From: an uncultured virus (IMG/VR IMGVR_UViG_3300048503_000017)
Taxonomy: Duplodnaviria; Heunggongvirae; Uroviricota; Caudoviricetes
DNA: 30,670 nucleotides
IMG/VR virus record: IMGVR_UViG_3300048503_000017
Reading direction: 5' to 3' (one strand)
The notes under the pieces are model-generated. The model worked only from the letters and a program-made list of their open reading frames with translations, was not told where the DNA came from and did not search any database. A program made the translations under genes and the position numbers. Shown here piece after piece: positions 4,980 through 26,691 of the stretch (position 1 is the first letter of the stretch; each line of letters starts with the position of its first letter).

Positions 4980-5574
4980 TGGAACCTCCTGTAAGTTTTG
5001 CTCTGAATGCGCCAAGGGTTTGCGTGAGGATTGCAGGTGCCCCAACTCGTTCAAGGCCGCGAATATAAGAGAATGCCAGCCGCAGAGCGCAAAGATTCAA
5101 CCGCGCCTCCGTGTACTGGTCAATCGCCATCACATACTCGTGTCGATGATCGTGCGTTCCAAGAATCCATGCCTTCGCCTGTTGACGCCACTCGGACAGC
5201 TTCTTAAACAATGCAGGATCGCCGCCACCTGGGGAGTCGGGGTGGGCCTTCCTTGCGCGGTCGCGGAATGCCTCGTCAATCTCAGCCAGCGTCGGCGCAG
5301 GGCTTTCGAGTCCCAACCCCTGCTGCCAAGAGAAGTCCTCCTTCTTCATTGACCACCATACCGACACGCCAGGGTCGAGACGATCACCCTCAGAGCGGCA
5401 GACGAGGATTGACGTTGCTTCCATCTTGTCAAGTTCGCTGGCAAGCATATCTCGGTATTGACCCCACGACTTCTTCCATGAGTGTTGCGGTTTGCGCTCC
5501 TTGATGCGCGTTCGTTCGCATCCATCCGGCCACTTCAACTTACATTCCTCAATCAGATCGACTTTCTTAGGCAT
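4960..5574 (-). CDS. Phage J-domain (DnaJ-like) protein
   Basis: LGLESPAPTLAEIDEAFRDRARKAHPDSPGGGDPALFKKL is a J-domain with the HPD motif; N-terminal LKWPDGCERT resembles phage J-domain families. Confidence 0.8.
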   Translation of the reverse strand: MPKKVDLIEECKLKWPDGCERTRIKERKPQHSWKKSWGQYRDMLASELDKMEATSILVCRSEGDRLDPGVSVWWSMKKEDFSWQQGLGLESPAPTLAEIDEAFRDRARKAHPDSPGGGDPALFKKLSEWRQQAKAWILGTHDHRHEYVMAIDQYTEARLNLCALRLAFSYIRGLERVGAPAILTQTLGAFRAKLTGGSSESVHS

Positions 5575-5737
5575 CCTCTTCCCCCTCTACAAACCGCTCC
5601 CCGCAGTCCTCGCAAACGTACTGTCCCTCACCAACAATGGTCAGATCGTCGCTGCCACATTCAGGGCACACGGGAATATCTTCTGGCCCCTCGTCAAGAT
5701 CATCGTCGAACTCGTCATACTCAAACGCGCCTCTCAC
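5567..5737 (-). CDS. Small acidic zinc-ribbon protein
   Basis: CPECGS...YVCEDCG; likely GTG start at 5737 overlapping the upstream TGA. Confidence 0.6.
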   Translation of the reverse strand: MRGAFEYDEFDDDLDEGPEDIPVCPECGSDDLTIVGEGQYVCEDCGERFVEGEEDA

Positions 5738-5853
5738 TTGACCACCGGAACTCTCTTGCAACGCACACAGGCCAGATGAAGCCGGTACGGATTGTGCCGG
5801 TCCCTCACTGGCCTTGGCTTGCAGCCGAATAGTTTGCAAATCAATCGCTTCAT
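5734..5853 (-). CDS. Small Cys-rich protein (39 aa), DUF1660-like, probably leaderless
   Basis: Manual translation: MKRLICKLFGCKPRPVRDRHNPYRLHLACVRCKRVPVVK. Preceded by TATTCT, 6 nt, then ATG. Confidence 0.55.
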   Translation of the reverse strand: MKRLICKLFGCKPRPVRDRHNPYRLHLACVRCKRVPVVK

Positions 5854-5869
5854 GTAGGCAGAATACACC

Positions 5870-6628
5870 TTAAACCGTTTCTGTGGGGAACTCGTGAATC
5901 AGCAAGTGAGCGGGGATCAAAGCAGCACCTTCCGCTGACGTTCTTGCGCCCATCTGCTTCATCCAAAACTTACTGCCGTTGGCTTTGCACTCTCTCTGCA
6001 CATCCTCGGCCCACTTCTGTTCCATCGGTCTGCGTCCGGCTCCGCTCTCTGCTCCGCATATCACCCAATCCGGCACAATCGCCCACTGACCCATCCCGTT
6101 TATTTGCAGCGGCCCAAGAGCTGGTTCATAGCTGATGAATGTTGTCAGGTCGCGTCCGAGAGCAGCCCGGTACAGATACGGCCAGCGAAGATCATAGTTT
6201 TTCTGATCCTCTGTCGACGTTCCGAGCCACACGTTGCCGTGCTTGAATTCTTGCGGCAGGTACTTAGCATACCGTTGTGGTCGCTTTGTGAGGAGTTGCC
6301 AGATGAGGTTCGGCGTGTTGTCGATCAACCCCCAAAGTCGCTCACGCTGACCGGCCGGTGCCTCGTCATCCATCACATCTGCCATCGAAGCGCAGAACAC
6401 CCTCCACGGATTCCCTGACTTCTTGGCAAGCCGATCCCATTTCAACGGCTCTTTCCAGTAAGCGTCACTCATCACCTTACGAGGAACTCCCTTACCCCAA
6501 TGCGGATCTCCAAACCGTTTGTCGAGTGTCTCCGCGTAGCAGTTGTCACACCCTGGAGAAATTTTTGTACATCCATGCCACGAATTAAAAGTTGAGTGGC
6601 ACCAAGAAATACCTGTTTCCTGTCCCAT
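5870..6628 (-). CDS. Phage Gp37Gp68 / DUF5131 family protein (radical-SAM-like Fe-S fold)
   Basis: TGISW...TFNSWHGCTKISPGCDNCYAE, RVFCASMAD, QLLTKRP, NVWLGTS, FISYEPALG, DWVICGAESG, FWMKQMG. Confidence 0.92.
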   Translation of the reverse strand: MGQETGISWCHSTFNSWHGCTKISPGCDNCYAETLDKRFGDPHWGKGVPRKVMSDAYWKEPLKWDRLAKKSGNPWRVFCASMADVMDDEAPAGQRERLWGLIDNTPNLIWQLLTKRPQRYAKYLPQEFKHGNVWLGTSTEDQKNYDLRWPYLYRAALGRDLTTFISYEPALGPLQINGMGQWAIVPDWVICGAESGAGRRPMEQKWAEDVQRECKANGSKFWMKQMGARTSAEGAALIPAHLLIHEFPTETV

Positions 6629-8713: not shown

Positions 8714-9607
8714 CTATTGCATCTGGGGATCGTTAATTATGTCACTCAGCATCTTGCAGACCTTTACCCCGAACTGGTAGCGGCTTGCAAAGTATTTCGC
8801 TAAACCTGGGTTCCTGGCTTCACCGTCCTTGGAGAACGCGAAACTGAGGGTTCTGTAGAGGATGTACTGAGTTAGGCAGTCCGGCACGATGAAGCCGTCT
8901 CCCCACCCCATAGTCTGCGCCTGCCGCTGCGCGTAGACACACTCCAAGCTAAGATTGTTCCCCATCCTCGGCCAGATGCCGACGTTCTGGATGCCGATTT
9001 TATCCCTAAACCAAACCCTCGGCTGGCTCAACGCCTGCTGGCTCCATCCGTAGAACATCGAATCGAGATTGCTTTGTGAAGTCTCCCTCAGCGGATACGA
9101 CTCGTAAGCCACCCTCACCGGAAACAGCGAATCGGCCGACAGAGCCGTATTCTGAGTCGTTGGGGCCACAACCAAATCCGCGATGTTGTACGCCAGCGGA
9201 ACGTCCGTGTAGAAATCCGAAGTGGCGCTGCTGATGTATGCGATCATCTCCGACTGAGTAAAGAGCGGATCTGTCGGATACCGCACCGGGAACGTGCTTC
9301 CGTTTATCCATTCTCCTGCCGCGTGAGCATTCGCAAAGTTCGCAGTGAAGCTCACACCCACGTTGACAGCCGTAACCGTAACAACTTCGAGGTTCCCCCC
9401 AGTCACTCCGCACACCAACTGAGCGCCGACGTAGAAGCAGACCGTGGGAACCCACACTGCCGGATTGCTGATGGGAATCGTTTGAGAACCGGCTGTGATC
9501 GCGGCAGGAAATTGCTCGTTGACGACAGGCTGGATCAGCGCGTAGCTCGCGTCCTGGAGCCTATCGATCACGCGAAGATAACCTGCTCCAACTGTCGGGG
9601 ATGACAT
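8714..9607 (-). CDS. Head-tail adaptor / tail ring-like virion protein with inserted beta domain
   Basis: FTQSEMIAYISSA helix, IGIQNVGIWP, and C-terminal VPDCLTQYILYRTLSFAFSKDGE...AKYFASRY resemble podovirus adaptor proteins. Confidence 0.65.
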   Translation of the reverse strand: MSSPTVGAGYLRVIDRLQDASYALIQPVVNEQFPAAITAGSQTIPISNPAVWVPTVCFYVGAQLVCGVTGGNLEVVTVTAVNVGVSFTANFANAHAAGEWINGSTFPVRYPTDPLFTQSEMIAYISSATSDFYTDVPLAYNIADLVVAPTTQNTALSADSLFPVRVAYESYPLRETSQSNLDSMFYGWSQQALSQPRVWFRDKIGIQNVGIWPRMGNNLSLECVYAQRQAQTMGWGDGFIVPDCLTQYILYRTLSFAFSKDGEARNPGLAKYFASRYQFGVKVCKMLSDIINDPQMQ

Positions 9608-9909
9608 CAGTCCTCCCAGTCCGACAAATCAACGGTTTGATTTACGAGAGCGTGCGTGCAGTCTCCGAGAAATTGAATCTTGCCGTCTTTTACGAAAGAG
9701 TGACACCGAACATCTTTCCCGTCGCTATCAGTTGCTGAAAAGTTAATGCTCGGCATAACTGTTGGGAGATCTTCATTGCCGTTCCAGTCCCATACGGGCT
9801 CAGGGAGAAGCGCCTGACCGTTGATTTTCACGCGAATGCGGTGGTGGTATCCACACCCAGGGCAACTGAATCCAGCATAGCCCTTATCTGACACGCTCAA
9901 CTTCGCCAT
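9607..9909 (-). CDS. DUF6527-like Cys/His protein
   Basis: FSCPGCGYHH...WDWNGN...PTVMPSI...RCHSFVKDGKIQFLGDCTHAL...TVDL. Confidence 0.8.
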   Translation of the reverse strand: MAKLSVSDKGYAGFSCPGCGYHHRIRVKINGQALLPEPVWDWNGNEDLPTVMPSINFSATDSDGKDVRCHSFVKDGKIQFLGDCTHALVNQTVDLSDWED

Positions 9910-10339: not shown

Positions 10340-11035
10340 CTATGCGACCCGAGCAAATGCTCCGTGAAACTCACTAGCAGCCTTGCAGTAAGCAGCATAG
10401 GCCAATTCAGGGGTCGGGAATAGTCCAAGATACACTTTCTTTCCGTTGACGCTAATTTGTGCAGTCCACTTCCCCGTAGCTTTATGCCACGAGACGCCTT
10501 TATAACCACTTTTGTTTGTAACCGGCTTCTTTGTATTCTGCATATTTTGGGCGGAAGATGCAGGTCGGACATTATCCCTTCGGTTGTCGAGAGTATTGCG
10601 ATTCTTGTGATCTGGCTTAATAATTCCAGCAACTTCTCTGTGCATGTAAATATGGGCTTTATGGTTGCCGTCCGCGTGACGAACCGCATAGTAGCAATTT
10701 CCCTTTTTGTCCTGTTTCGCAAACCATTTTGACCTCATCAGCCAGATGTAATCAACCTCATCAACTATGGTCCAGAGTCCGCGAGTGAGAGGGATGAGGC
10801 GGCAATACACTCCGTCTATCTTGAAGGGAAGGGCATCTACAATTATCGGCCTGATTTTGCTTTGATGACCTAGCACGTAGCGGCACGGATAGCCCTGTTT
10901 GACGCCGAATTTACGGCTTGTCATTGTGCAGATTTTCGTCTGCTCGCCACACTCGCAATGGCAGTTGCCGTAACCAACTTTGCAATTAGTTCCGCAAAAT
11001 ATGCATGTTGGTACAATTGCTTCGAGGGGTGTCAT
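10340..11035 (-). CDS. HNH homing endonuclease with C-terminal AP2 DNA-binding domain
   Basis: IYMHRE...DHKNRNTLDNRRDNVRPASSAQN (HNH); SGYKGVSW...WTAQI...KVYLGLF.TPELAYAAY..AA...HGAFA (AP2); N-terminal CHCECG...YVLGH. Start likely ATG 11035 (GGAG SD). Confidence 0.93.
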   Translation of the reverse strand: MTPLEAIVPTCIFCGTNCKVGYGNCHCECGEQTKICTMTSRKFGVKQGYPCRYVLGHQSKIRPIIVDALPFKIDGVYCRLIPLTRGLWTIVDEVDYIWLMRSKWFAKQDKKGNCYYAVRHADGNHKAHIYMHREVAGIIKPDHKNRNTLDNRRDNVRPASSAQNMQNTKKPVTNKSGYKGVSWHKATGKWTAQISVNGKKVYLGLFPTPELAYAAYCKAASEFHGAFARVA

Positions 11036-11095
11036 AGTCGCTCCAATCCAGCGATGAGGCTTGCCGGGAGGTCGCACTCCCTGACACCCTTTATT

Positions 11096-15376: not shown

Positions 15377-16033
15377 TTAGATGATGTCGCAGCCAACGAG
15401 CACGTCGACCAAGCCGGCTGTGAGAGCCGACAAAACCGATGCCTGTCTGCCGAACGGTTGATAGGTTGCCGAGCTTCCGGCCGCGATTGAGTTCATGCTG
15501 AGAGTTCCTGCAACCGGAACTAGCCATGAGCCAATTCCAGCGGCAGACGAACCAGAGCAATACGCCTGCGACAAGAAGCCGGCGACTTGGATCATGATGT
15601 AGGAACCGACAAGTTGCGCCGCCGTCAAAGACGTGAGCGAAGTCGTGTTCAACATCATGAATCCGGCCGGGAAATTCAACCCGAGGGTCGTCCCTCCCAA
15701 TGCCTCAGTCGTGATTCCGGTGACTGTCGTGTAGGTTTCGTCCGTCCAGTAGACCGGAGCCGGAGCCGCAGCGGTCGTCAGGTTCCCCGTGGTGATTGCC
15801 GAAGTCGACAAATACTGGACGAGCATGAAGATTGCCGGAGAACCGCTTGGATTCGCCTGCAAACTCGTAGCGCCAGTGGTTGTACTGGTTACGCCGAAAT
15901 ACCTCTGACCGAGCACTTGGTTCTCGCCCAATCCCTTCCACGGAGCAAATGCGGTCGTGGGGTTGTAGAGATAGGTACGAGTTAAGCCTGTGTCGATCTG
16001 AAGAAGTTGATTGCTTACACCGAAAATTGCCAT
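15377..16033 (-). CDS. Putative capsid cement / decoration protein
   Basis: Ala/Thr/Gly-rich, directly downstream of the capsid gene, AAGGAG SD, YIMIQVAG motif. Confidence 0.6.
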   Translation of the reverse strand: MAIFGVSNQLLQIDTGLTRTYLYNPTTAFAPWKGLGENQVLGQRYFGVTSTTTGATSLQANPSGSPAIFMLVQYLSTSAITTGNLTTAAAPAPVYWTDETYTTVTGITTEALGGTTLGLNFPAGFMMLNTTSLTSLTAAQLVGSYIMIQVAGFLSQAYCSGSSAAGIGSWLVPVAGTLSMNSIAAGSSATYQPFGRQASVLSALTAGLVDVLVGCDII

Positions 16034-16048
16034 GTCATTCTCCTTTTC

Positions 16049-17029
16049 TCACAGGCCGCTAAAGTTCAGATTAAACATGAGCCTTGGCGCATCGAACACC
16101 AAGTCGCCGTCATAGAAATACTGGCCGGCCACGTCGTCAGTGTTCTGCGCTTCCTTCCACCCCGAGAACCCGAAAGCGTACTTCGGAATCGTCGACACGT
16201 AGAAGAAGATGTAGTTGGTGTTGAAGCCGTACATCTGGTAGGCACCGCCCAGCGTACTCAGGTACTGGTCGACAACCACCTGGCCTCCATTCCAGAAGAA
16301 CGAGCGGAATCCAACGTGAACGTCGGAGGTCTCGTCATTGAACCGCTGTTGCGGCTGGAGCTTGTTCCACATAGCATCCCACACCGGCTGTGTGGTCGTA
16401 ATCATGTCGACCTTCTCCTGGCCGAACCATGACGCACCGTAAGCCGTCTGCACAGCGCCCAGCGAGAATGCCGATGGAGCCAAGTAGTAAGCGTTGATGC
16501 CAGTGTTAGCCGCCGATGCGATGTCGGTTCTGGTGACACCGCCATACGTCGGATAGTTGGCCGGGATATTGATGGCCGCTGCCGCGCCGTCCAGATCGGT
16601 CGTAGAGTTCAACGAAGTCGAACCGTCTAGGCCGCCGTCTCCGTACAGGTTAATCGCAAGCAACTGCGCCATCGTACCGGAAGCGTTAATCATCTTCGAG
16701 CCGATGAAACTCAAAGCGCCTTCGGGACCACGGTTCAAAACCTGATCGGACCCATACAATGTGACGTTTACATAATATTGCTTCACATTGAAATAGAGCG
16801 CCGTGTCGGTCTGCACTGCGGATATGTCGAAGGCTTGGCCGCGCTGGTAGGAGCCGCCCTTGAGGGGCGCGTACATGATGTTGTGGCGGATCGTTAGACC
16901 GCCCTCGAACTGGAAGCGTCTTTTGTTCTTGAGCCGAGTCAGGACCGGCGAGTTCTTGAACACGGAGTCCACGATTCTCGGTACGATCTTGTCAACGGTT
17001 TTGCTCGTGAGGTCATTATAAGTGAGCAC
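16049..17029 (-). CDS. Major capsid protein (HK97 fold)
   Basis: 326 aa; IVDSVFKNSPVL..L, EGGLTI..NI.Y, LYGDG, TYGGVTR, QQRF...GFRSF...VVVD, YGFNTNYI; follows portal and scaffold. Confidence 0.9.
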   Translation of the reverse strand: MLTYNDLTSKTVDKIVPRIVDSVFKNSPVLTRLKNKRRFQFEGGLTIRHNIMYAPLKGGSYQRGQAFDISAVQTDTALYFNVKQYYVNVTLYGSDQVLNRGPEGALSFIGSKMINASGTMAQLLAINLYGDGGLDGSTSLNSTTDLDGAAAAINIPANYPTYGGVTRTDIASAANTGINAYYLAPSAFSLGAVQTAYGASWFGQEKVDMITTTQPVWDAMWNKLQPQQRFNDETSDVHVGFRSFFWNGGQVVVDQYLSTLGGAYQMYGFNTNYIFFYVSTIPKYAFGFSGWKEAQNTDDVAGQYFYDGDLVFDAPRLMFNLNFSGL

Positions 17030-17207
17030 GTTAAAGCCTCGATTCCGCCCATTCGGGCCTGAGATGCTGACAACTCGGCTTTCGCCGCTTCATCGTTCAA
17101 CAGGCTCTGCTAACGCTTCCTGTTGACTCATCCCTGCCAATCCCGAGTGGGTTCTGCACGAGGCTTCCCGCTTACAGATTGCAGTTGCGGTTTTGAAAGA
17201 ACCGCAA
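17030..17207 (-). promoter_or_regulatory. Structured 5' leader of major capsid gene
   Basis: Nested inverted repeats 17034-17041/17159-17166, 17047-17058, 17076-17087 (GAAA loop), 17097-17104/17119-17126 and 17185-17207. Confidence 0.6.
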
Positions 17208-17211
17208 AACT

Positions 17212-18138
17212 CTAAACCTTGCCGGCCTGGATCAATTCCTTTGCTCCCTCGACAACTCCTGCTTGTACGAGATCGCGTACATCAACCGGACCCTTGTCGC
17301 TGCCTGCGCTGTCATCCAACGCCTTTTGCAAAAGTCCCTTGGCATCACCGCCAAACTGTTGCGGAATGAAACGCTCCCCGCCGCCCGCCGGCATTCCACG
17401 ATCCGCAAGCCGCTTGTTGACTTCAGCTTCGATGTCGGCCTCACGCTGCTTCTTGGCCTTCACTGGCTCCATCAGTTTGTCTTCGAGAGCGTAAGGGTCA
17501 AACTTGTTCTCCTTACTCATCATCTCGAAAAACTCTTTCTGCTTGTCCGGCGTCCACTTCTCCCCGGATTCCTTCTCGTATCGTAGCGCCACAACTCCAT
17601 TGGCTGCGGCAAATCCAGCTACAAACGGGATGGTCTCCGAGTTGAACTTCGCTTCACGGGCCGTGAATCCATCCTCTACGGCCTTCTTCGTCTCGGCTGC
17701 GTAGAGTGCGGTTGCTTCTTCCCGCGTCAAACCGCCAGCTTGCTTGGCGATCTCCTGAACTTTCTTCGTAACCAGTTCGTCCAACTGCTTCGGGTCCATG
17801 TCTCCTCCAAGAGCTTTTGCCGCTTCAATCTGCCGTTCGAGTTCTGCCTTCTGGTCAGTCCAAAGGACTTTCCCTTCAGAATCGAGAACGCCTGCCTCTT
17901 CCAGAGCATGAAGTCTGTCGTAGGCTTCCTGCGACCAAGGCTCCATCTTTGCCTTGTACGCCACGGCTTCCTCGTACACAGTCTCTTTCGACTTCAACTC
18001 GTTCTGCTTGCGGCTGTAGTCGTCTTGGCGAAGCCACCCGCCTTTTAGTTCGGGTTCCTTTGCAAAAAGGTTGTCAATGAGCGTCTTCTCTTGGGCACTG
18101 AGCGCAGAGTAAATCCCTTCAAAGGTCTTGACTGCCAT
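17212..18138 (-). CDS. Capsid scaffolding protein
   Basis: Charged and helical; GWLRQDDYSRKQNEL resembles the QxDYT/SRK scaffold motif; directly upstream of the capsid gene. Confidence 0.8.
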   Translation of the reverse strand: MAVKTFEGIYSALSAQEKTLIDNLFAKEPELKGGWLRQDDYSRKQNELKSKETVYEEAVAYKAKMEPWSQEAYDRLHALEEAGVLDSEGKVLWTDQKAELERQIEAAKALGGDMDPKQLDELVTKKVQEIAKQAGGLTREEATALYAAETKKAVEDGFTAREAKFNSETIPFVAGFAAANGVVALRYEKESGEKWTPDKQKEFFEMMSKENKFDPYALEDKLMEPVKAKKQREADIEAEVNKRLADRGMPAGGGERFIPQQFGGDAKGLLQKALDDSAGSDKGPVDVRDLVQAGVVEGAKELIQAGKV

Positions 18139-18204
18139 CTCCCTTGTCCTTCCTCGCTTCCCTCATCGGGCTCCGTCGAGGCTACGGGCTGCGGGTGTTA
18201 ATGA

Positions 18205-18558
18205 TTATCCGGGCATCTGCCCCGGCATCGGAGGTAACTGAGGTTGCGGTGGGGGTGCGCCTGCTCCAGCCGCCGGAGGAGGACCTGCCATTCCCCCTGG
18301 CTGAGATTGAGGCCCCTTTTGCTGCGCCATTGCCGCTCCGGTCTTCAAGATGGCGATGGCTCTTGTTGCATAGGTGCGGAACGTGTCGTCGTTCACACCC
18401 ATTGCAATTTTCTCGATTGTCGAAACAGCCAAATCGATTTGGTTCTTGCCCACTTGCTCTTGAGCTTGCCCAATTGCTGAACCGAACCCGCTGCCGCCTG
18501 GAGGCCCCATTTGGGCCTGGGCTTGTGGTGACATCGGCGGTCTGTCGATTGGAGGCAT
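18205..18558 (-). CDS. Pro/Gln/Gly-rich hypothetical protein (head morphogenesis region)
   Basis: TGATG coupling; low-complexity termini around a helical core. Confidence 0.65.
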   Translation of the reverse strand: MPPIDRPPMSPQAQAQMGPPGGSGFGSAIGQAQEQVGKNQIDLAVSTIEKIAMGVNDDTFRTYATRAIAILKTGAAMAQQKGPQSQPGGMAGPPPAAGAGAPPPQPQLPPMPGQMPG

Positions 18559-18758
18559 CAGAATTCCGAGTTCCCAACCTGCGTTTTGCCGGTCTTCACG
18601 TTGACACTCGTGCCACGCGGTTCAACCGTGGTCATATCGCCTTCGTCAATGAAGGTTCCAACGGCTGCGAACTCGCCCTTCTTCATCTTCGGCGCCGAAG
18701 TCGCATCATAGTGACCGCCTACTGCAATGGGTGCGGCCATGCCCTTTCCATCTTTCAT
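18558..18758 (-). CDS. Hypothetical protein (66 aa)
   Basis: GAGGA SD; coupled to the downstream gene. Confidence 0.65.
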   Translation of the reverse strand: MKDGKGMAAPIAVGGHYDATSAPKMKKGEFAAVGTFIDEGDMTTVEPRGTSVNVKTGKTQVGNSEF

Positions 18759-18787
18759 GTGATTCCTCGTCGGATGGTTTGCTTGAG

Positions 18788-18815
18788 TTAAGGGGAGAGC
18801 TTTTGGCCCTCCCCC
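18788..18815 (-). terminator. Terminator-like hairpin
   Basis: GGGGAGGGC-caaaa-GCTCTCCCC followed by TTAA (weak U tract). Confidence 0.45.
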
Positions 18816-18847
18816 ACTTGCTGCCGGTCAAAACCGGCTAGCTCCGA

Positions 18848-18901
18848 TTAGCGCCGTACGTGCTTGACACGGGCCTTCTTGCCACGCTTGGTCTCGAACA
18901 T
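18848..18901 (-). CDS. 17-aa basic peptide
   Basis: Manual translation: MFETKRGKKARVKHVRR; strong AAGGAG SD 6 nt upstream. Confidence 0.6.
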   Translation of the reverse strand: MFETKRGKKARVKHVRR

Positions 18902-19096
18902 GGGATGCTCCTTTCCGGGTAGTTCGCCCTGGGTTTTATTTCGCCGGTGTTCTGGTTGCGGCCTCTCACCGCTGTACTGCTGGCGATCCCCGGAATGGAT
19001 ACCGGAGGTCTAATGCAGCAAGTAGTTAACTTGCCTCATTGAGCAAATGATTAAACAATTGTCCGAATGATTTCAAGCGAAATCGTAAAGAGAAAA

Positions 19097-20959
19097 TTAT
19101 TTATGGTGTGCCGCTCCCGGCTTTATGCCAGCAGCAGCCGCCGCAAGCGCCATCTGCTTTGCCTCTTCCGCAAGCTCTTCATCGTTCTCTTTCTGGTCTA
19201 TATTCCAATCTGGAACAGCGATGGCAAAAAACTTCTTGCGGCTCAAATCTCGATTCTTTCTCAGTCCGGCCGCAATCGAAATACGGTCCTGGCGCTGGAA
19301 TCCGAACAACGATCCCTGCTCGCATTCAAAGCCGAACTTACGGACGTGCGATTCAGAGTTCACACCTTCAGGTATCAAACTTCCCGGCCTATCGTCGATG
19401 TCCTCTTTCGTTAGTCCATCCATACCGAGAGTTTCAACGCGCCTTGCAGCGTCATAGAACTGTAGTGCTGTTCCGGTCCACAATTCTCCAACTTCATTCA
19501 CGCCCGTCTCAACGTTTGCGGCTTTGAACCTGATTGGTGTTGTCTTCGAGAACTGAATCTTTTCGAGTGTGTCTCCACCTGGAACCTGCTTCTTCCCGAG
19601 AGCTTGATTAACAGCATCGGTCCCTGAGTTCTCCTTGATCGTCCTTCTGAGCATCTCAAGCACTGGCAGTGGGTAGTTTCCAATATTTGGAGGAGCCTGC
19701 CACGTCGGACCTGTAATGGCATTCGAGTTGAAAGAGATTTTCAGGTTTGGCTTGTTGGCGTCTATAGCCTTCAATGCGTCTGGGTGAATAGCCGATTTTG
19801 GAGCCATCAAAGCCGGTGCTAGTGCTCTCTTCACAGCCAACAACAATCCCGACATAATCTGGTTCATGATGTCGTTTGTGTCCATCCACGGCTTCAATAC
19901 ACTCAAAGCGTACTGCTGCCACGGGACCGAGTGAAGACCCATCAAAACGAATGGCCTCTTGCGGTGGTAGTAGGGGTTGGGCTCATCGTATAGGGTCACT
20001 TTGTTCGAACGAATCACAAGCCTCCCACGAGGATAGAGCTTCTCTTCTGGTTTAACCCAGTATCCCCACGGTGCGCTGTTTGGGCTCTTTCCATCCCCAG
20101 GCCCCATCCATAATGTGTTGCGGCTTTCATTGATCGAATCGTCGTTCATCCAGAACTCGACTACTTCTGCCTCTGGATACTTGCTTCTCGCGCTCGACGC
20201 CTCAGACCCTCCCATAATACGTTTCCAGCCGGAATTCAACTGCTCAAACAATTGCGGCATGACCGTTGGAGGAACCTGTGGCTCAACACCGTAGGTGCTG
20301 TAATCTTCCTGCGGACGAACGTGCTTGCCCATATTCGGATAGGCTCTCTTGATCCAGTCGAGCGTCTCCCGGCGCCGGTAGATCACCATCTCGTCTTCTT
20401 GAAGATCATGAGGTCTTGTAGGCCCAAGCCGCATCAGGGCCTTGGGGTTCAAATGCTTCATGGAGATGTCGGCGTCACACGCATCCCCGCTCGTCCCTCT
20501 GGCAAACCGATTCCAGTAGAGGAGGACCGGCGAAGTCGTGAACATTCCGAACATTGTCCAGAACGCAAGCGTTTGATTGAATTTGTCCCTGCGAGCCCAA
20601 CCCTTGACCATCGCATTCAGAATCTTTGCGGTCTTCGAATAATCACCAGCAAACCCAACTTCCGAGATATGGAAGATCGGCCTTACATCGGTGAGCAGTC
20701 CTATCGTCTCCCAAAAATTCGAGAGAACCTCGTTCGACACCGGCTTTGGCCTGTAATTGGGGAGTTTCTCGCGCCATTGGATTCCGGCCAGATAATCGAT
20801 AGCCTCATCCATTGCCTTCAGTTCTGGAGTGGTCTTTTGGCGCGCAATTCCCTCGCTGAAACAGCCGTCAAGGAAATCGGCCATCTTGGAATAATATTCC
20901 AACAGATAGCGGTCTTCTACTTCAGGAGTCTTAGGAATGGGAGCTTGAAAGTCTGCCAT
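19097..20959 (-). CDS. Portal protein (P22-like)
   Basis: 620 aa; AIDYLAGIQW, PKPVSN, GLLTDVRP, VTLYDEPNPYYH.KRPFV, DIMNQIMS, IKENSG; lies between TerL and scaffold. Confidence 0.88.
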   Translation of the reverse strand: MADFQAPIPKTPEVEDRYLLEYYSKMADFLDGCFSEGIARQKTTPELKAMDEAIDYLAGIQWREKLPNYRPKPVSNEVLSNFWETIGLLTDVRPIFHISEVGFAGDYSKTAKILNAMVKGWARRDKFNQTLAFWTMFGMFTTSPVLLYWNRFARGTSGDACDADISMKHLNPKALMRLGPTRPHDLQEDEMVIYRRRETLDWIKRAYPNMGKHVRPQEDYSTYGVEPQVPPTVMPQLFEQLNSGWKRIMGGSEASSARSKYPEAEVVEFWMNDDSINESRNTLWMGPGDGKSPNSAPWGYWVKPEEKLYPRGRLVIRSNKVTLYDEPNPYYHRKRPFVLMGLHSVPWQQYALSVLKPWMDTNDIMNQIMSGLLLAVKRALAPALMAPKSAIHPDALKAIDANKPNLKISFNSNAITGPTWQAPPNIGNYPLPVLEMLRRTIKENSGTDAVNQALGKKQVPGGDTLEKIQFSKTTPIRFKAANVETGVNEVGELWTGTALQFYDAARRVETLGMDGLTKEDIDDRPGSLIPEGVNSESHVRKFGFECEQGSLFGFQRQDRISIAAGLRKNRDLSRKKFFAIAVPDWNIDQKENDEELAEEAKQMALAAAAAGIKPGAAHHK

Positions 20960-25884: not shown

Positions 25885-26129
25885 TCCGCAATCCTCACTT
25901 CACTTCCGTCATCACGCAACGCAACTATCTGCGACGAAGAATCGGTCATTACTGTTGAGTGGACCTTGTAGTTGCATCCAGTTTCTTTGTTCTTGCAGAC
26001 GTACTCCAGATGATCGACAACCTGTTTCTGTCCCCTGCGGCCCATCACTACCTTCGGCTTCAAGACGGTTCCGCAACTATGACACACGAGATTGGCCGCG
26101 ACTAACGGCGAAAGGTCCGGTATTGACAT
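25881..26129 (-). CDS. Zinc-ribbon protein
   Basis: CHSCG...YVCKNKETGC; start near 26129 behind GAGGAG. Confidence 0.65.
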   Translation of the reverse strand: MSIPDLSPLVAANLVCHSCGTVLKPKVVMGRRGQKQVVDHLEYVCKNKETGCNYKVHSTVMTDSSSQIVALRDDGSEVRIAE

Positions 26130-26691
26130 GCCCATTCTCCTCATTCCTTCTTGTTTGTGCTCTGCGCATTGCTTTCCAATTGTGAAATCGTTCCAGAACC
26201 TCTTTCCTGCGCCGCTCTGGAACCCTGTCAACGAAAAATGTTCCCGTCAGATGATCGAGTTCATGTTGAACGATTCTCGCCACCGATCCCCTAAACGTCA
26301 ACTTCTTTCGCTCGTATGGAGTTTCTGCTAGAGAAGCCTCAACGTCGACGATTTCAAGCCGTGGCACCATGCACTCATTTCCCGAAGGCGGCAAACTTAA
26401 ACAGCCCTCCGGTTCCTTAATCTCTTTTCCGTACAACCTAGTGATCTCCGGGTTCACTAAACCAATGACTATTCCGTGACTCCTGCCGATCAATACGAAT
26501 TGCTTGAAGCATCCTATCTGCGGAGCCGCCAATCCCAATCCATCTGCCTTTCGCATCACTTCGATCATGTACTCGAATAATTTCGGAATCTCCGGCCACT
26601 CAGCCTCTTCGACAGGCTTCGCAAGGATGTTGTTCATCTCTGGCCCATAAATAGAGAGCCTAAAATTCCTCTGAAAGTACATTTCCCTCAC
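26077..26691 (-). CDS. def: Peptide deformylase
   Basis: All three PDF motifs: GLGLAAPQIG, EGCLS, QHELDHL.G. Confidence 0.95.
   Translation of the reverse strand: MREMYFQRNFRLSIYGPEMNNILAKPVEEAEWPEIPKLFEYMIEVMRKADGLGLAAPQIGCFKQFVLIGRSHGIVIGLVNPEITRLYGKEIKEPEGCLSLPPSGNECMVPRLEIVDVEASLAETPYERKKLTFRGSVARIVQHELDHLTGTFFVDRVPERRRKEVLERFHNWKAMRRAQTRRNEENGHVNTGPFAVSRGQSRVS

Follow-up and report, generated by a model that had tools for sequence, protein, structure and literature searches.

The 182-nt gap between a scaffold-like open reading frame and the major capsid gene of an uncultured tailed virus (IMG/VR record IMGVR_UViG_3300048503_000017) encodes a conserved multi-stem RNA family on the mRNA strand. 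The whole 30,670-nt stretch of this record that was analysed is referred to here as the window. The element is probably a cis-acting structured leader of the major capsid gene, about 140 nt in length, and in several lineages part of it is complementary to the ribosome-binding site and start codon of that gene.

The genes of this region all lie on the minus strand, in the order portal, 308-aa scaffold-like ORF, gap, and major capsid gene. The portal gene (19097-20959) is assigned by phrog_156 (E 1.5e-14), and its product resembles the P22 portal by a weak Pfam match (24.9 bits, under the 26.1-bit cut-off). The ORF between portal and capsid (17212..18138, TAG stop at 17214-17212) encodes a helical, E/K/A-rich product that has no Pfam or PHROG match, and a protein atlas returned viral hypotheticals only, with Phage-scaffold as a weak lead (0.86). 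From position and composition we infer that this ORF encodes the scaffold; no firm name came from PHROGs, Pfam, or the protein atlas. The major capsid protein gene (326 aa, 16049..17029) matches the major head protein family phrog_9953 (E 4.6e-39). Small ORFs only, with no family match, occur in the approximately 960 nt between the portal and the scaffold-like gene (18139-19096), among them ORFs of 117 aa (18205-18558) and 43 aa (18838-18969). Elsewhere on the minus strand, the window encodes a peptide deformylase (26077-26691; PF01327, E 1.1e-28) upstream of the terminase and portal genes, an AP2-domain protein (10340-11077, E 9.9e-11), a DUF5131 protein (5870-6628, E 5.2e-62), a DUF6527 protein (9607-9909, E 2.5e-13), and a 90-aa zinc-ribbon protein (5567-5839, E 1.9e-6).

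An earlier sequence-only reading of this DNA had placed a GAGG 7 nt before a GUG start, and this arrangement was confirmed. The capsid start is the GUG at 17029-17027; related capsid proteins begin M-(A)-L-T-[Y/W/F]-[N/D] at the same position with AUG, GUG, or UUG, so the GUG is correct. The translation-initiation region (17027..17044, minus strand) contains, besides this codon, the Shine-Dalgarno (SD) sequence GAGG (17040-17037), 7 nt ahead of it, and the segment CGAGGCUU (17041-17034), the 3' strand of the ribosome-binding-site lock discussed below. Non-AUG capsid starts are common in the related loci (designated here by L numbers), with GUG in the window, L008, L011, L012, L026, L052, and L111, and UUG in L009, L036, and L113.

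The capsid-sense strand from 17215 to 17020 has a minimum free energy (MFE) of -74.7 kcal/mol, compared to a shuffle mean of -60.2 (sd 4.0; z -3.65), and none of 200 shuffles was as stable. To compare the region among viruses, 70 related contigs were gathered via the capsid protein (53-100% identity). In most of these loci a gap of 150-233 nt separates a scaffold-like ORF (300-337 aa) from the capsid gene, and the upstream sequences share blocks with the window. A starting structure derived by hand from the sequences was used for model R1, which was built on 6 close sequences and found 21 matches among 43 sources. Model R2, built from the R1 matches, yielded 28 matches at E <= 1 and 23 distinct sequences at E <= 4e-4, the latter constituting alignment A7. 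Standard pairs occupy 93.1% of 768 cells in A7 versus 78.7% in shuffles, and double-sided changes are found in 29 of 37 pairs (shuffle mean 12.6, with 29 reached in 0 of 500 shuffles). These covariation counts come from model-fitted alignments, a dependence that is partly offset by slid controls, a held-out set, and RNAalifold. When the 3' partners in A7 were slid by 1-3 columns, pairing fell to 34-44% (maximum 43.5%). In the held-out set, consisting of 12 metagenome sequences less than 90% similar to any training sequence, 323 of 366 cells are paired (88.3%), compared to 64.8 +/- 1.7 (maximum 70.2) in shuffles. RNAalifold alone on A7 recovers domain 1 and module 2 of the fold described below, with compensatory changes in 16 of 20 pairs. 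A plain MAFFT alignment of 13 leaders followed by RNAalifold gave P0, P2a, module 2, P2c, and P4, with 13 compensatory pairs. The covariation among capsid-upstream regions of relatives that the sequence-only reading had named as a check is present both in the 23 sequences of A7 and in the held-out set.

The aligned pairs include 82 G-U cells and 9 A-C cells, and this strong excess of G-U indicates that the folded RNA is the capsid-sense strand. The plus strand folds well too (z -4.21), but an RNA transcribed from the opposite strand is ruled out by the same counts. Identity of the core to the window ranges from 0.51 to 0.70 among relatives, whereas the capsid genes are 0.33-0.52 identical at four-fold degenerate third positions, which is indicative of purifying selection on the core. 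A small protein-coding ORF within the gap was considered and rejected, since the 20-codon AUG ORF of the window (17093-17031) has only 6 codons in L013 (judged by eye). Core lengths among the relatives are 141, 142, 143, 144, 147, 151, and 153 nt, which differ by non-multiples of three. The same 20-codon ORF stops 1 nt before the GUG, as might suit translational coupling from an upstream ORF, yet by eye it is not conserved.

The conserved core spans 141 nt of the minus strand (17046..17186) and is matched by both models (R2: 147.1 bits, E 4.6e-30). On its 5' side lies P0 (17185..17207), a hairpin of 8 bp with a 7-nt loop formed by UUGCGGUU and AACCGCAA. It begins 5 nt past the TAG, where the sequence-only reading had noticed a hairpin after the scaffold stop. 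Compensatory changes preserve P0 in the MAFFT alignment of 13 leaders, with 5 double-sided changes at each of two pairs, and since it is followed by CUGCAAUCUG and lacks a U-tract, it is not terminator-like. Domain 1 (D1, 17134..17184) is a long irregular hairpin composed of P1a, in which CUGC (17184-17181) pairs with GCAG (17137-17134), and P1b, in which AAUCU (17180-17176) pairs with GGAUU (17143-17139). Across P1a and P1b, 7 of 9 pairs have double-sided changes and 98.3% of the A7 cells are paired. D1 encloses module 1 (17149..17169), with the form GGG-AA-GC(loop)GC-AGAA-CCC, in which GGAAG is invariant and the apical part is degenerate in the window (2 bp). The 5' half of this module (17167-17159) is the anti-SD strand of the lock.

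Domain 2 (D2, 17062..17133) is joined to D1 without a linker and forms a three-way junction that holds module 2 and the P2c hairpin. It is closed by P2a, the pairing of GGAUG (17133-17129) with CAUCU (17066-17062), where all 5 pairs have a double-sided change and 84.8% of A7 cells are paired. Module 2 (17097..17126), UCAACAGG-AA-GC(GUUA)GC-AGAG-CCUGUUGA, is recovered by RNAalifold and has compensatory changes in 8 of 8 outer pairs in A7. The P2c hairpin CGGC-GAAA-GCCG (17076..17087) varies little (95.7% of A7 cells paired), and its tetraloop is GAAA, GCAA, GUAA, or GAAG in relatives. P4 (17047..17058), a small GCCC-GAAU-GGGC hairpin 3' of D2, has a double-sided change in 4 of 4 pairs and 95.8% of cells paired, and some subgroups lack it. 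D1 and module 2 are the universal parts of the element; P2a, P2c, and P4 are absent or rebuilt in the L015/L017/L024/L037 subgroup.

All pairings listed by the sequence-only reading exist at their positions, namely AAGCCUCG/CGAGGCUU, UCAACAGG/CCUGUUGA within 17126-17097, CGGC-GAAA-GCCG, GCCC-GAAU-GGGC, and ACUCGG/CCGAGU. The last of these (17148-17143 with 17078-17073), which had been proposed as an alternative competing with the P2c stem, can form in the window but is not conserved, each pair being possible in 8-15 of 26 sequences.

The two modules are alike. In each, an outer stem ending in G-G is followed by an invariant AA bulge, generating the GGAAG motif, and then by a short hairpin variable in length and sequence; on the 3' side a variable 4-nt loop precedes C-C, so that the two-A bulge faces the 4-nt loop. 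A kink-turn, taken as a three-nucleotide bulge with tandem sheared G-A pairs, was considered and, judging by sequence, does not fit, as the modules have a 2-nt AA bulge between G-C pairs with a variable 4-nt loop opposite, and neither module conserves G-A dinucleotides where a kink-turn needs them.

Known RNA families do not account for the element. A search of window positions 16700-17600 with Rfam 15 (4227 models) at E <= 10 returned only RAGATH-33 (12.9 bits versus a threshold of 120.4, E 9.8) and sR30 (E 5.8). Among 11 relatives nothing was found at the element at E <= 1, and a gathering-threshold scan of nine sources including the window gave no matches. Resemblances to CsrA-type GGA sites, tetraloop receptors, and SRP and rRNA segments were considered and rejected, as their topology differs and no model matches. 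Literature searches found no description of this element. The sequence-only reading of an uncatalogued multi-stem RNA on the mRNA strand is thus borne out by the compensatory changes and the lack of an Rfam match. Scans of 16800-17500 detected no sigma-70-like promoter and no terminator-like sites, suggesting that the scaffold-like and capsid genes are probably co-transcribed. No RNA-binding protein family was identified in the window by Pfam, the zinc-ribbon ORF being the only faint candidate.

The sequence-only reading also held that a closing stem locks the capsid ribosome-binding site. In the window, AAGCCUCG (17166->17159) is complementary to CGAGGCUU (17041->17034) over 8 Watson-Crick base pairs. 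Shuffling the start region produced a match of this length to the element in 38 of 2000 cases, and the duplex energy relative to shuffled start regions is unremarkable (z -0.93 in the window, -2.0 to +1.2 in relatives). The unconstrained MFE fold of the window (-73.3 kcal/mol) has the SD paired: GAAGCCUCG of module 1 pairs with the SD-containing CGAGGCUUU, GCG pairs with CGU over the first bases of the start codon, and D1 and P4 are broken. When the conserved pairs are enforced, the energy is -62.7 kcal/mol and the SD is largely free. GAGG in the window has a predicted pairing probability of 1.0, and the predicted cost of exposing the capsid start region is 8.8 kcal/mol (MFE) or 11.4 kcal/mol (ensemble energy), all of these being thermodynamic predictions that leave out tertiary structure and pseudoknots. 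By opening energy the capsid start region ranks 7th of 34 window ORFs (upper quartile), with the start codons of the other ORFs taken as the first in frame, and few start regions in the window open as easily as that of the scaffold-like gene (4.9 kcal/mol). The locked fold breaks D1, and the closing stem therefore competes with the covariation-supported domain, although the lock could form as a pseudoknot without full melting of D1. The proposed lock is thus predicted for this lineage, but it is not part of the conserved architecture.

Pairing of the start region with module 1 in the MFE fold is predicted for the window group, L013, L018, L025, L027, and L028, in each case with a different sequence. 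The partner is the variable apical part of module 1, with perfect pairing over 9 bp in L027, 11 bp in L028, and 7 bp in L013, where the AUG is covered. In the L015 subgroup the start-region partner is the module 2 region. Mutually exclusive pairing is clear in the window group, L013, L018, L027, L028, L090, and L138, and perfect helices of at least 7 bp are present in only 7 of 29 lineages. Predicted SD pairing among relatives ranges from 0.22 to 0.99, and the L054-type group has a strong AAGGAGG, apparently free, after a U-rich tract.

In a swap test, the pairing of each start region with its own element was compared to its pairing with elements taken from different lineages. Cognate pairs are favored by 1.4-1.5 kcal/mol on average (p 0.00095 with 17 lineages, 0.00045 with 18), and the signal sits in D1 (p 0.0018), less so in the remaining element (p 0.07). 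Three mock coding segments gave p values of 0.26, 0.64, and 0.81. When repeated on 11 unused sequences, the test returned p 0.029 (mock segments, 0.99 and 0.54). Of 29 cognate pairs, 7 contain a perfect helix of 7 bp or longer, compared to 53 of the 812 non-cognate ones, and a permutation test of mean helix length gave p 0.0012. Judging from these comparisons, complementarity between start region and element is maintained in evolution. Given that it is cognate-specific and that long helices occur in only 7 of 29 lineages, the lock appears to be recurrent and compensatorily evolved, yet not universal, and to lie outside the conserved core. Of the cis-regulatory switch suggested by the sequence-only reading, the covarying leader domain and the cognate complementarity have been found, whereas this scarcity of long perfect helices speaks against a lock common to the family.

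Wherever it occurs, the element sits between the scaffold-like gene and the start of a capsid gene of this family. R2 found 37 matches in 68 metagenome loci, and 36 of these end within 70 nt of the capsid start. An exact three-block pattern had 14 matches in IMG/VR, of which 12 are capsid loci and 2 are not the element according to R2. The nearest phage record contains one copy of the element, and blastn of 16000-18200 found no match among deposited phage genomes. Within the window, a strict GGAAG-module pattern matched the two leader copies and one site inside a gene, and a loose structural scan gave 6 matches where 3.1 were expected by chance (maximum 7); these near-chance numbers provide no sign of further operator sites. 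The most distant leaders, of the L054 type, were not detected by R2 even with filters off, and thus their homology to the element is uncertain. By eye and MFE they contain two hairpins with an AA bulge, and their overall fold is no better than shuffles (z -1.21). Leaders of L054-L065 (e.g., L054:2308-2500) have a 6-bp hairpin, then a variable U-rich tract, then a strong AAGGAGG, an arrangement that resembles a weak terminator or a U-rich translational enhancer; a scan found no terminator on the sense strand.

In a species-representative genome collection, the capsid family matched only three short Acidobacteriota MAG contigs (L071, L072, and L073), one of them labelled Terracidiphilus. These contigs hint at the host phylum, though they could be binned phage DNA. 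No host-chromosome copies were found in 151 genomes of the family of the MAG holding L071 (a candidate host), a search in which the model had no positive control.

In several relatives (L052, L016, and, upstream of the capsid match, L035, L066, and L069) the capsid gene is interrupted, either close to its 5' end or deeper within the gene. In L052 (1364-2515) the capsid frame reads VALTYDDLTSKTNKFN followed by a stop codon and resumes about 1.1 kb later, the insert encoding a LAGLIDADG endonuclease (PF00961, E 8e-6). Matches to group I introns were obtained in L066 (1744-2451; sub-threshold, 28.1 bits versus 50, E 0.0012) and, more weakly, in L069 (E 0.092). In L016 (1947-2477), a LAGLIDADG-like ORF of 176 aa (E 6e-4, below the cut-off) separates the RNA element from a capsid frame that lacks an ordinary start codon at the homologous position. 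The 5' region of the capsid gene looks like a hot spot for insertion of introns and homing endonucleases. In the interrupted genes of L052 and L069, the element adjoins the first exon and its start codon.

We lean, by a little, towards a cis-acting two-state switch on capsid translation in which an effector sets the balance. The conserved fold would be the ON state, with the start region free. The alternative fold would be the OFF state, with the SD and start codon paired to the element (in the window, to the 5' half of module 1) and D1 excluded. The balance between them would be set by a putative effector that recognizes both GGAAG modules, and a protein, such as a host factor or the free form of scaffold or capsid protein, would be a likelier candidate than a small ligand. 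Such a switch might set the scaffold:capsid ratio, as the sequence-only reading proposed. The duplication of the module and the similar distance of both copies from the D1/D2 hinge suggest a dimeric protein, or two loops docking into one site. Scaffold or capsid protein in its free form would be a biologically sensible effector, and with an assembly protein in this role capsid synthesis would be tied to the state of head assembly. A more specific and rather unlikely version is that the element represents a new class of sensor RNA, in which the two near-identical GGAAG modules side by side at the D1/D2 hinge jointly bind the effector and thereby expose or conceal the capsid ribosome-binding site. 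The most attractive effector would be unassembled scaffold or capsid protein, failing which an ion or a metabolite, and the element would amount to an assembly-coupled checkpoint written into a dsDNA-phage mRNA.

The element could instead serve constitutively in mRNA stability or processing, by blocking host ribonucleases or being their target, and so give the scaffold and capsid segments of the late transcript different lifetimes with neither switch nor effector. Its position exactly between two cistrons that are probably co-transcribed (the gap having no promoter or terminator consensus), with P0 directly after the upstream stop and D1 a long irregular hairpin, is consistent with such a role, as is the lack of the lock in most lineages. 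However, generic barriers need neither invariant unpaired nucleotides nor two identical internal-loop modules, and cognate-specific complementarity to the start region is not expected of them, so we regard this explanation as quite unlikely. Control at the level of transcription, in which the nascent RNA acts on RNA polymerase or a downstream terminator (processive antitermination or attenuation) and so sets transcription into the capsid and later genes, would suit two adjacent stem-loop domains without a linker and the L054 leader, which ends in a hairpin, a U-rich tract, and a strong SD. It is nevertheless improbable, given that no terminator-like site is present in the window gap or on the L054 sense strand, that L054-type leaders are missed by R2 and are of uncertain homology, and that the start-region complementarity would be left unexplained.

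We give similarly little credence to a stand-alone trans-acting RNA released from the late transcript, serving as a head-assembly or packaging cofactor or as a decoy for a host factor. The compact multi-domain fold with strongly conserved loops and the single copy per genome, within the head-morphogenesis block, would be compatible with this, but there is no flanking promoter or terminator, Rfam scans over all library families found nothing, and the element always adjoins the capsid start region and co-varies with it. A self-cleaving ribozyme that separates the scaffold and capsid parts of the late transcript is very improbable. Although the loop nucleotides are invariant and the two helix/internal-loop/helix domains, at similar distances from the hinge, could dock, no self-cleaving ribozyme class in Rfam matches the element in the window or 11 relatives at permissive thresholds, and no conserved candidate cleavage site was identified in it. 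The ribozyme-like RNA or processing site contemplated by the sequence-only reading thus gains nothing from these searches, in which no other family matched either. That the gap is functionless, a chance structure or a decaying remnant, is barely credible: GC-rich sequence folds readily, but nothing beyond this favors the idea, and the folding z-score, the compensatory changes in A7, the held-out set, and conservation above synonymous sites are all against it.

The proposed two-state switch belongs to a well-known class of mechanisms, as translational riboswitches and other RNA switches hide the SD sequence within a leader RNA that conceals the ribosome-binding site. As in translational riboswitches, a covarying, sensor-like fold is located in the 5' leader, a segment of it is predicted in some lineages to pair instead with the SD and start codon, and the sequence that links fold and start region differs from lineage to lineage. 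Unlike them, the element matches none of the 4227 Rfam models, is confined to one phage capsid clade, and has no known ligand, and only roughly one lineage in four has a detectable lock. Protein-dependent translational operators in phages include those of Mu Com on mom mRNA, T4 gene 32, RegA, and gp43, and the coat-protein operator of ssRNA phages. The element shares with these the (here proposed) principle that RNA structure at or near the ribosome-binding site decides translation of a phage gene, and by analogy its repeated recognition module would suit a dimeric protein. However, the Mu Com, T4, and ssRNA-phage operators are single small hairpins or pseudoknots, whereas the element is multi-domain, about 140 nt long, and known without a cognate protein. 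In phage P22 the scaffolding protein is autoregulated post-transcriptionally, its synthesis being tuned to the unassembled pool, and we know of no defined RNA element for this regulation. The element likewise belongs to a scaffold-capsid gene pair, in a phage with a P22-like portal by a weak Pfam match, but the gene regulated in P22 is that of the scaffold, whereas here the element adjoins the capsid start.

Structured RNAs are predicted to be numerous in uncultivated viruses. A catalogue of 10,006 candidate structured RNAs is reported from IMG/VR viruses, with cis-regulatory leaders predicted by covariation (Fremin et al. 2023, PMC10690425), and 5 of the candidates are upstream of another capsid family (PHA00201). 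The element and, as described there, those candidates both come from IMG/VR contigs. In the searchable supplement files of PMC10690425, none of five contig sample numbers tried was found. As far as checked, the RNA family and its two-module architecture are new with respect to Rfam and the literature, and the candidates of PMC10690425 may already include the element.

To our knowledge, the balance of scaffold and capsid protein in tailed phages has been worked out for few model phages, mostly at the protein level. The finding described here is a covariation-supported RNA located where the capsid gene starts, throughout a clade of uncultivated phages from soil and peat, with a multi-domain architecture and a repeated invariant internal loop that is absent from Rfam, and it provides a concrete handle on post-transcriptional control of head assembly. 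If no effector is involved, the element would be one more structured phage leader among thousands of predicted candidates. If the effector is an assembly protein or a small molecule, it would represent a new regulatory principle for dsDNA phages.
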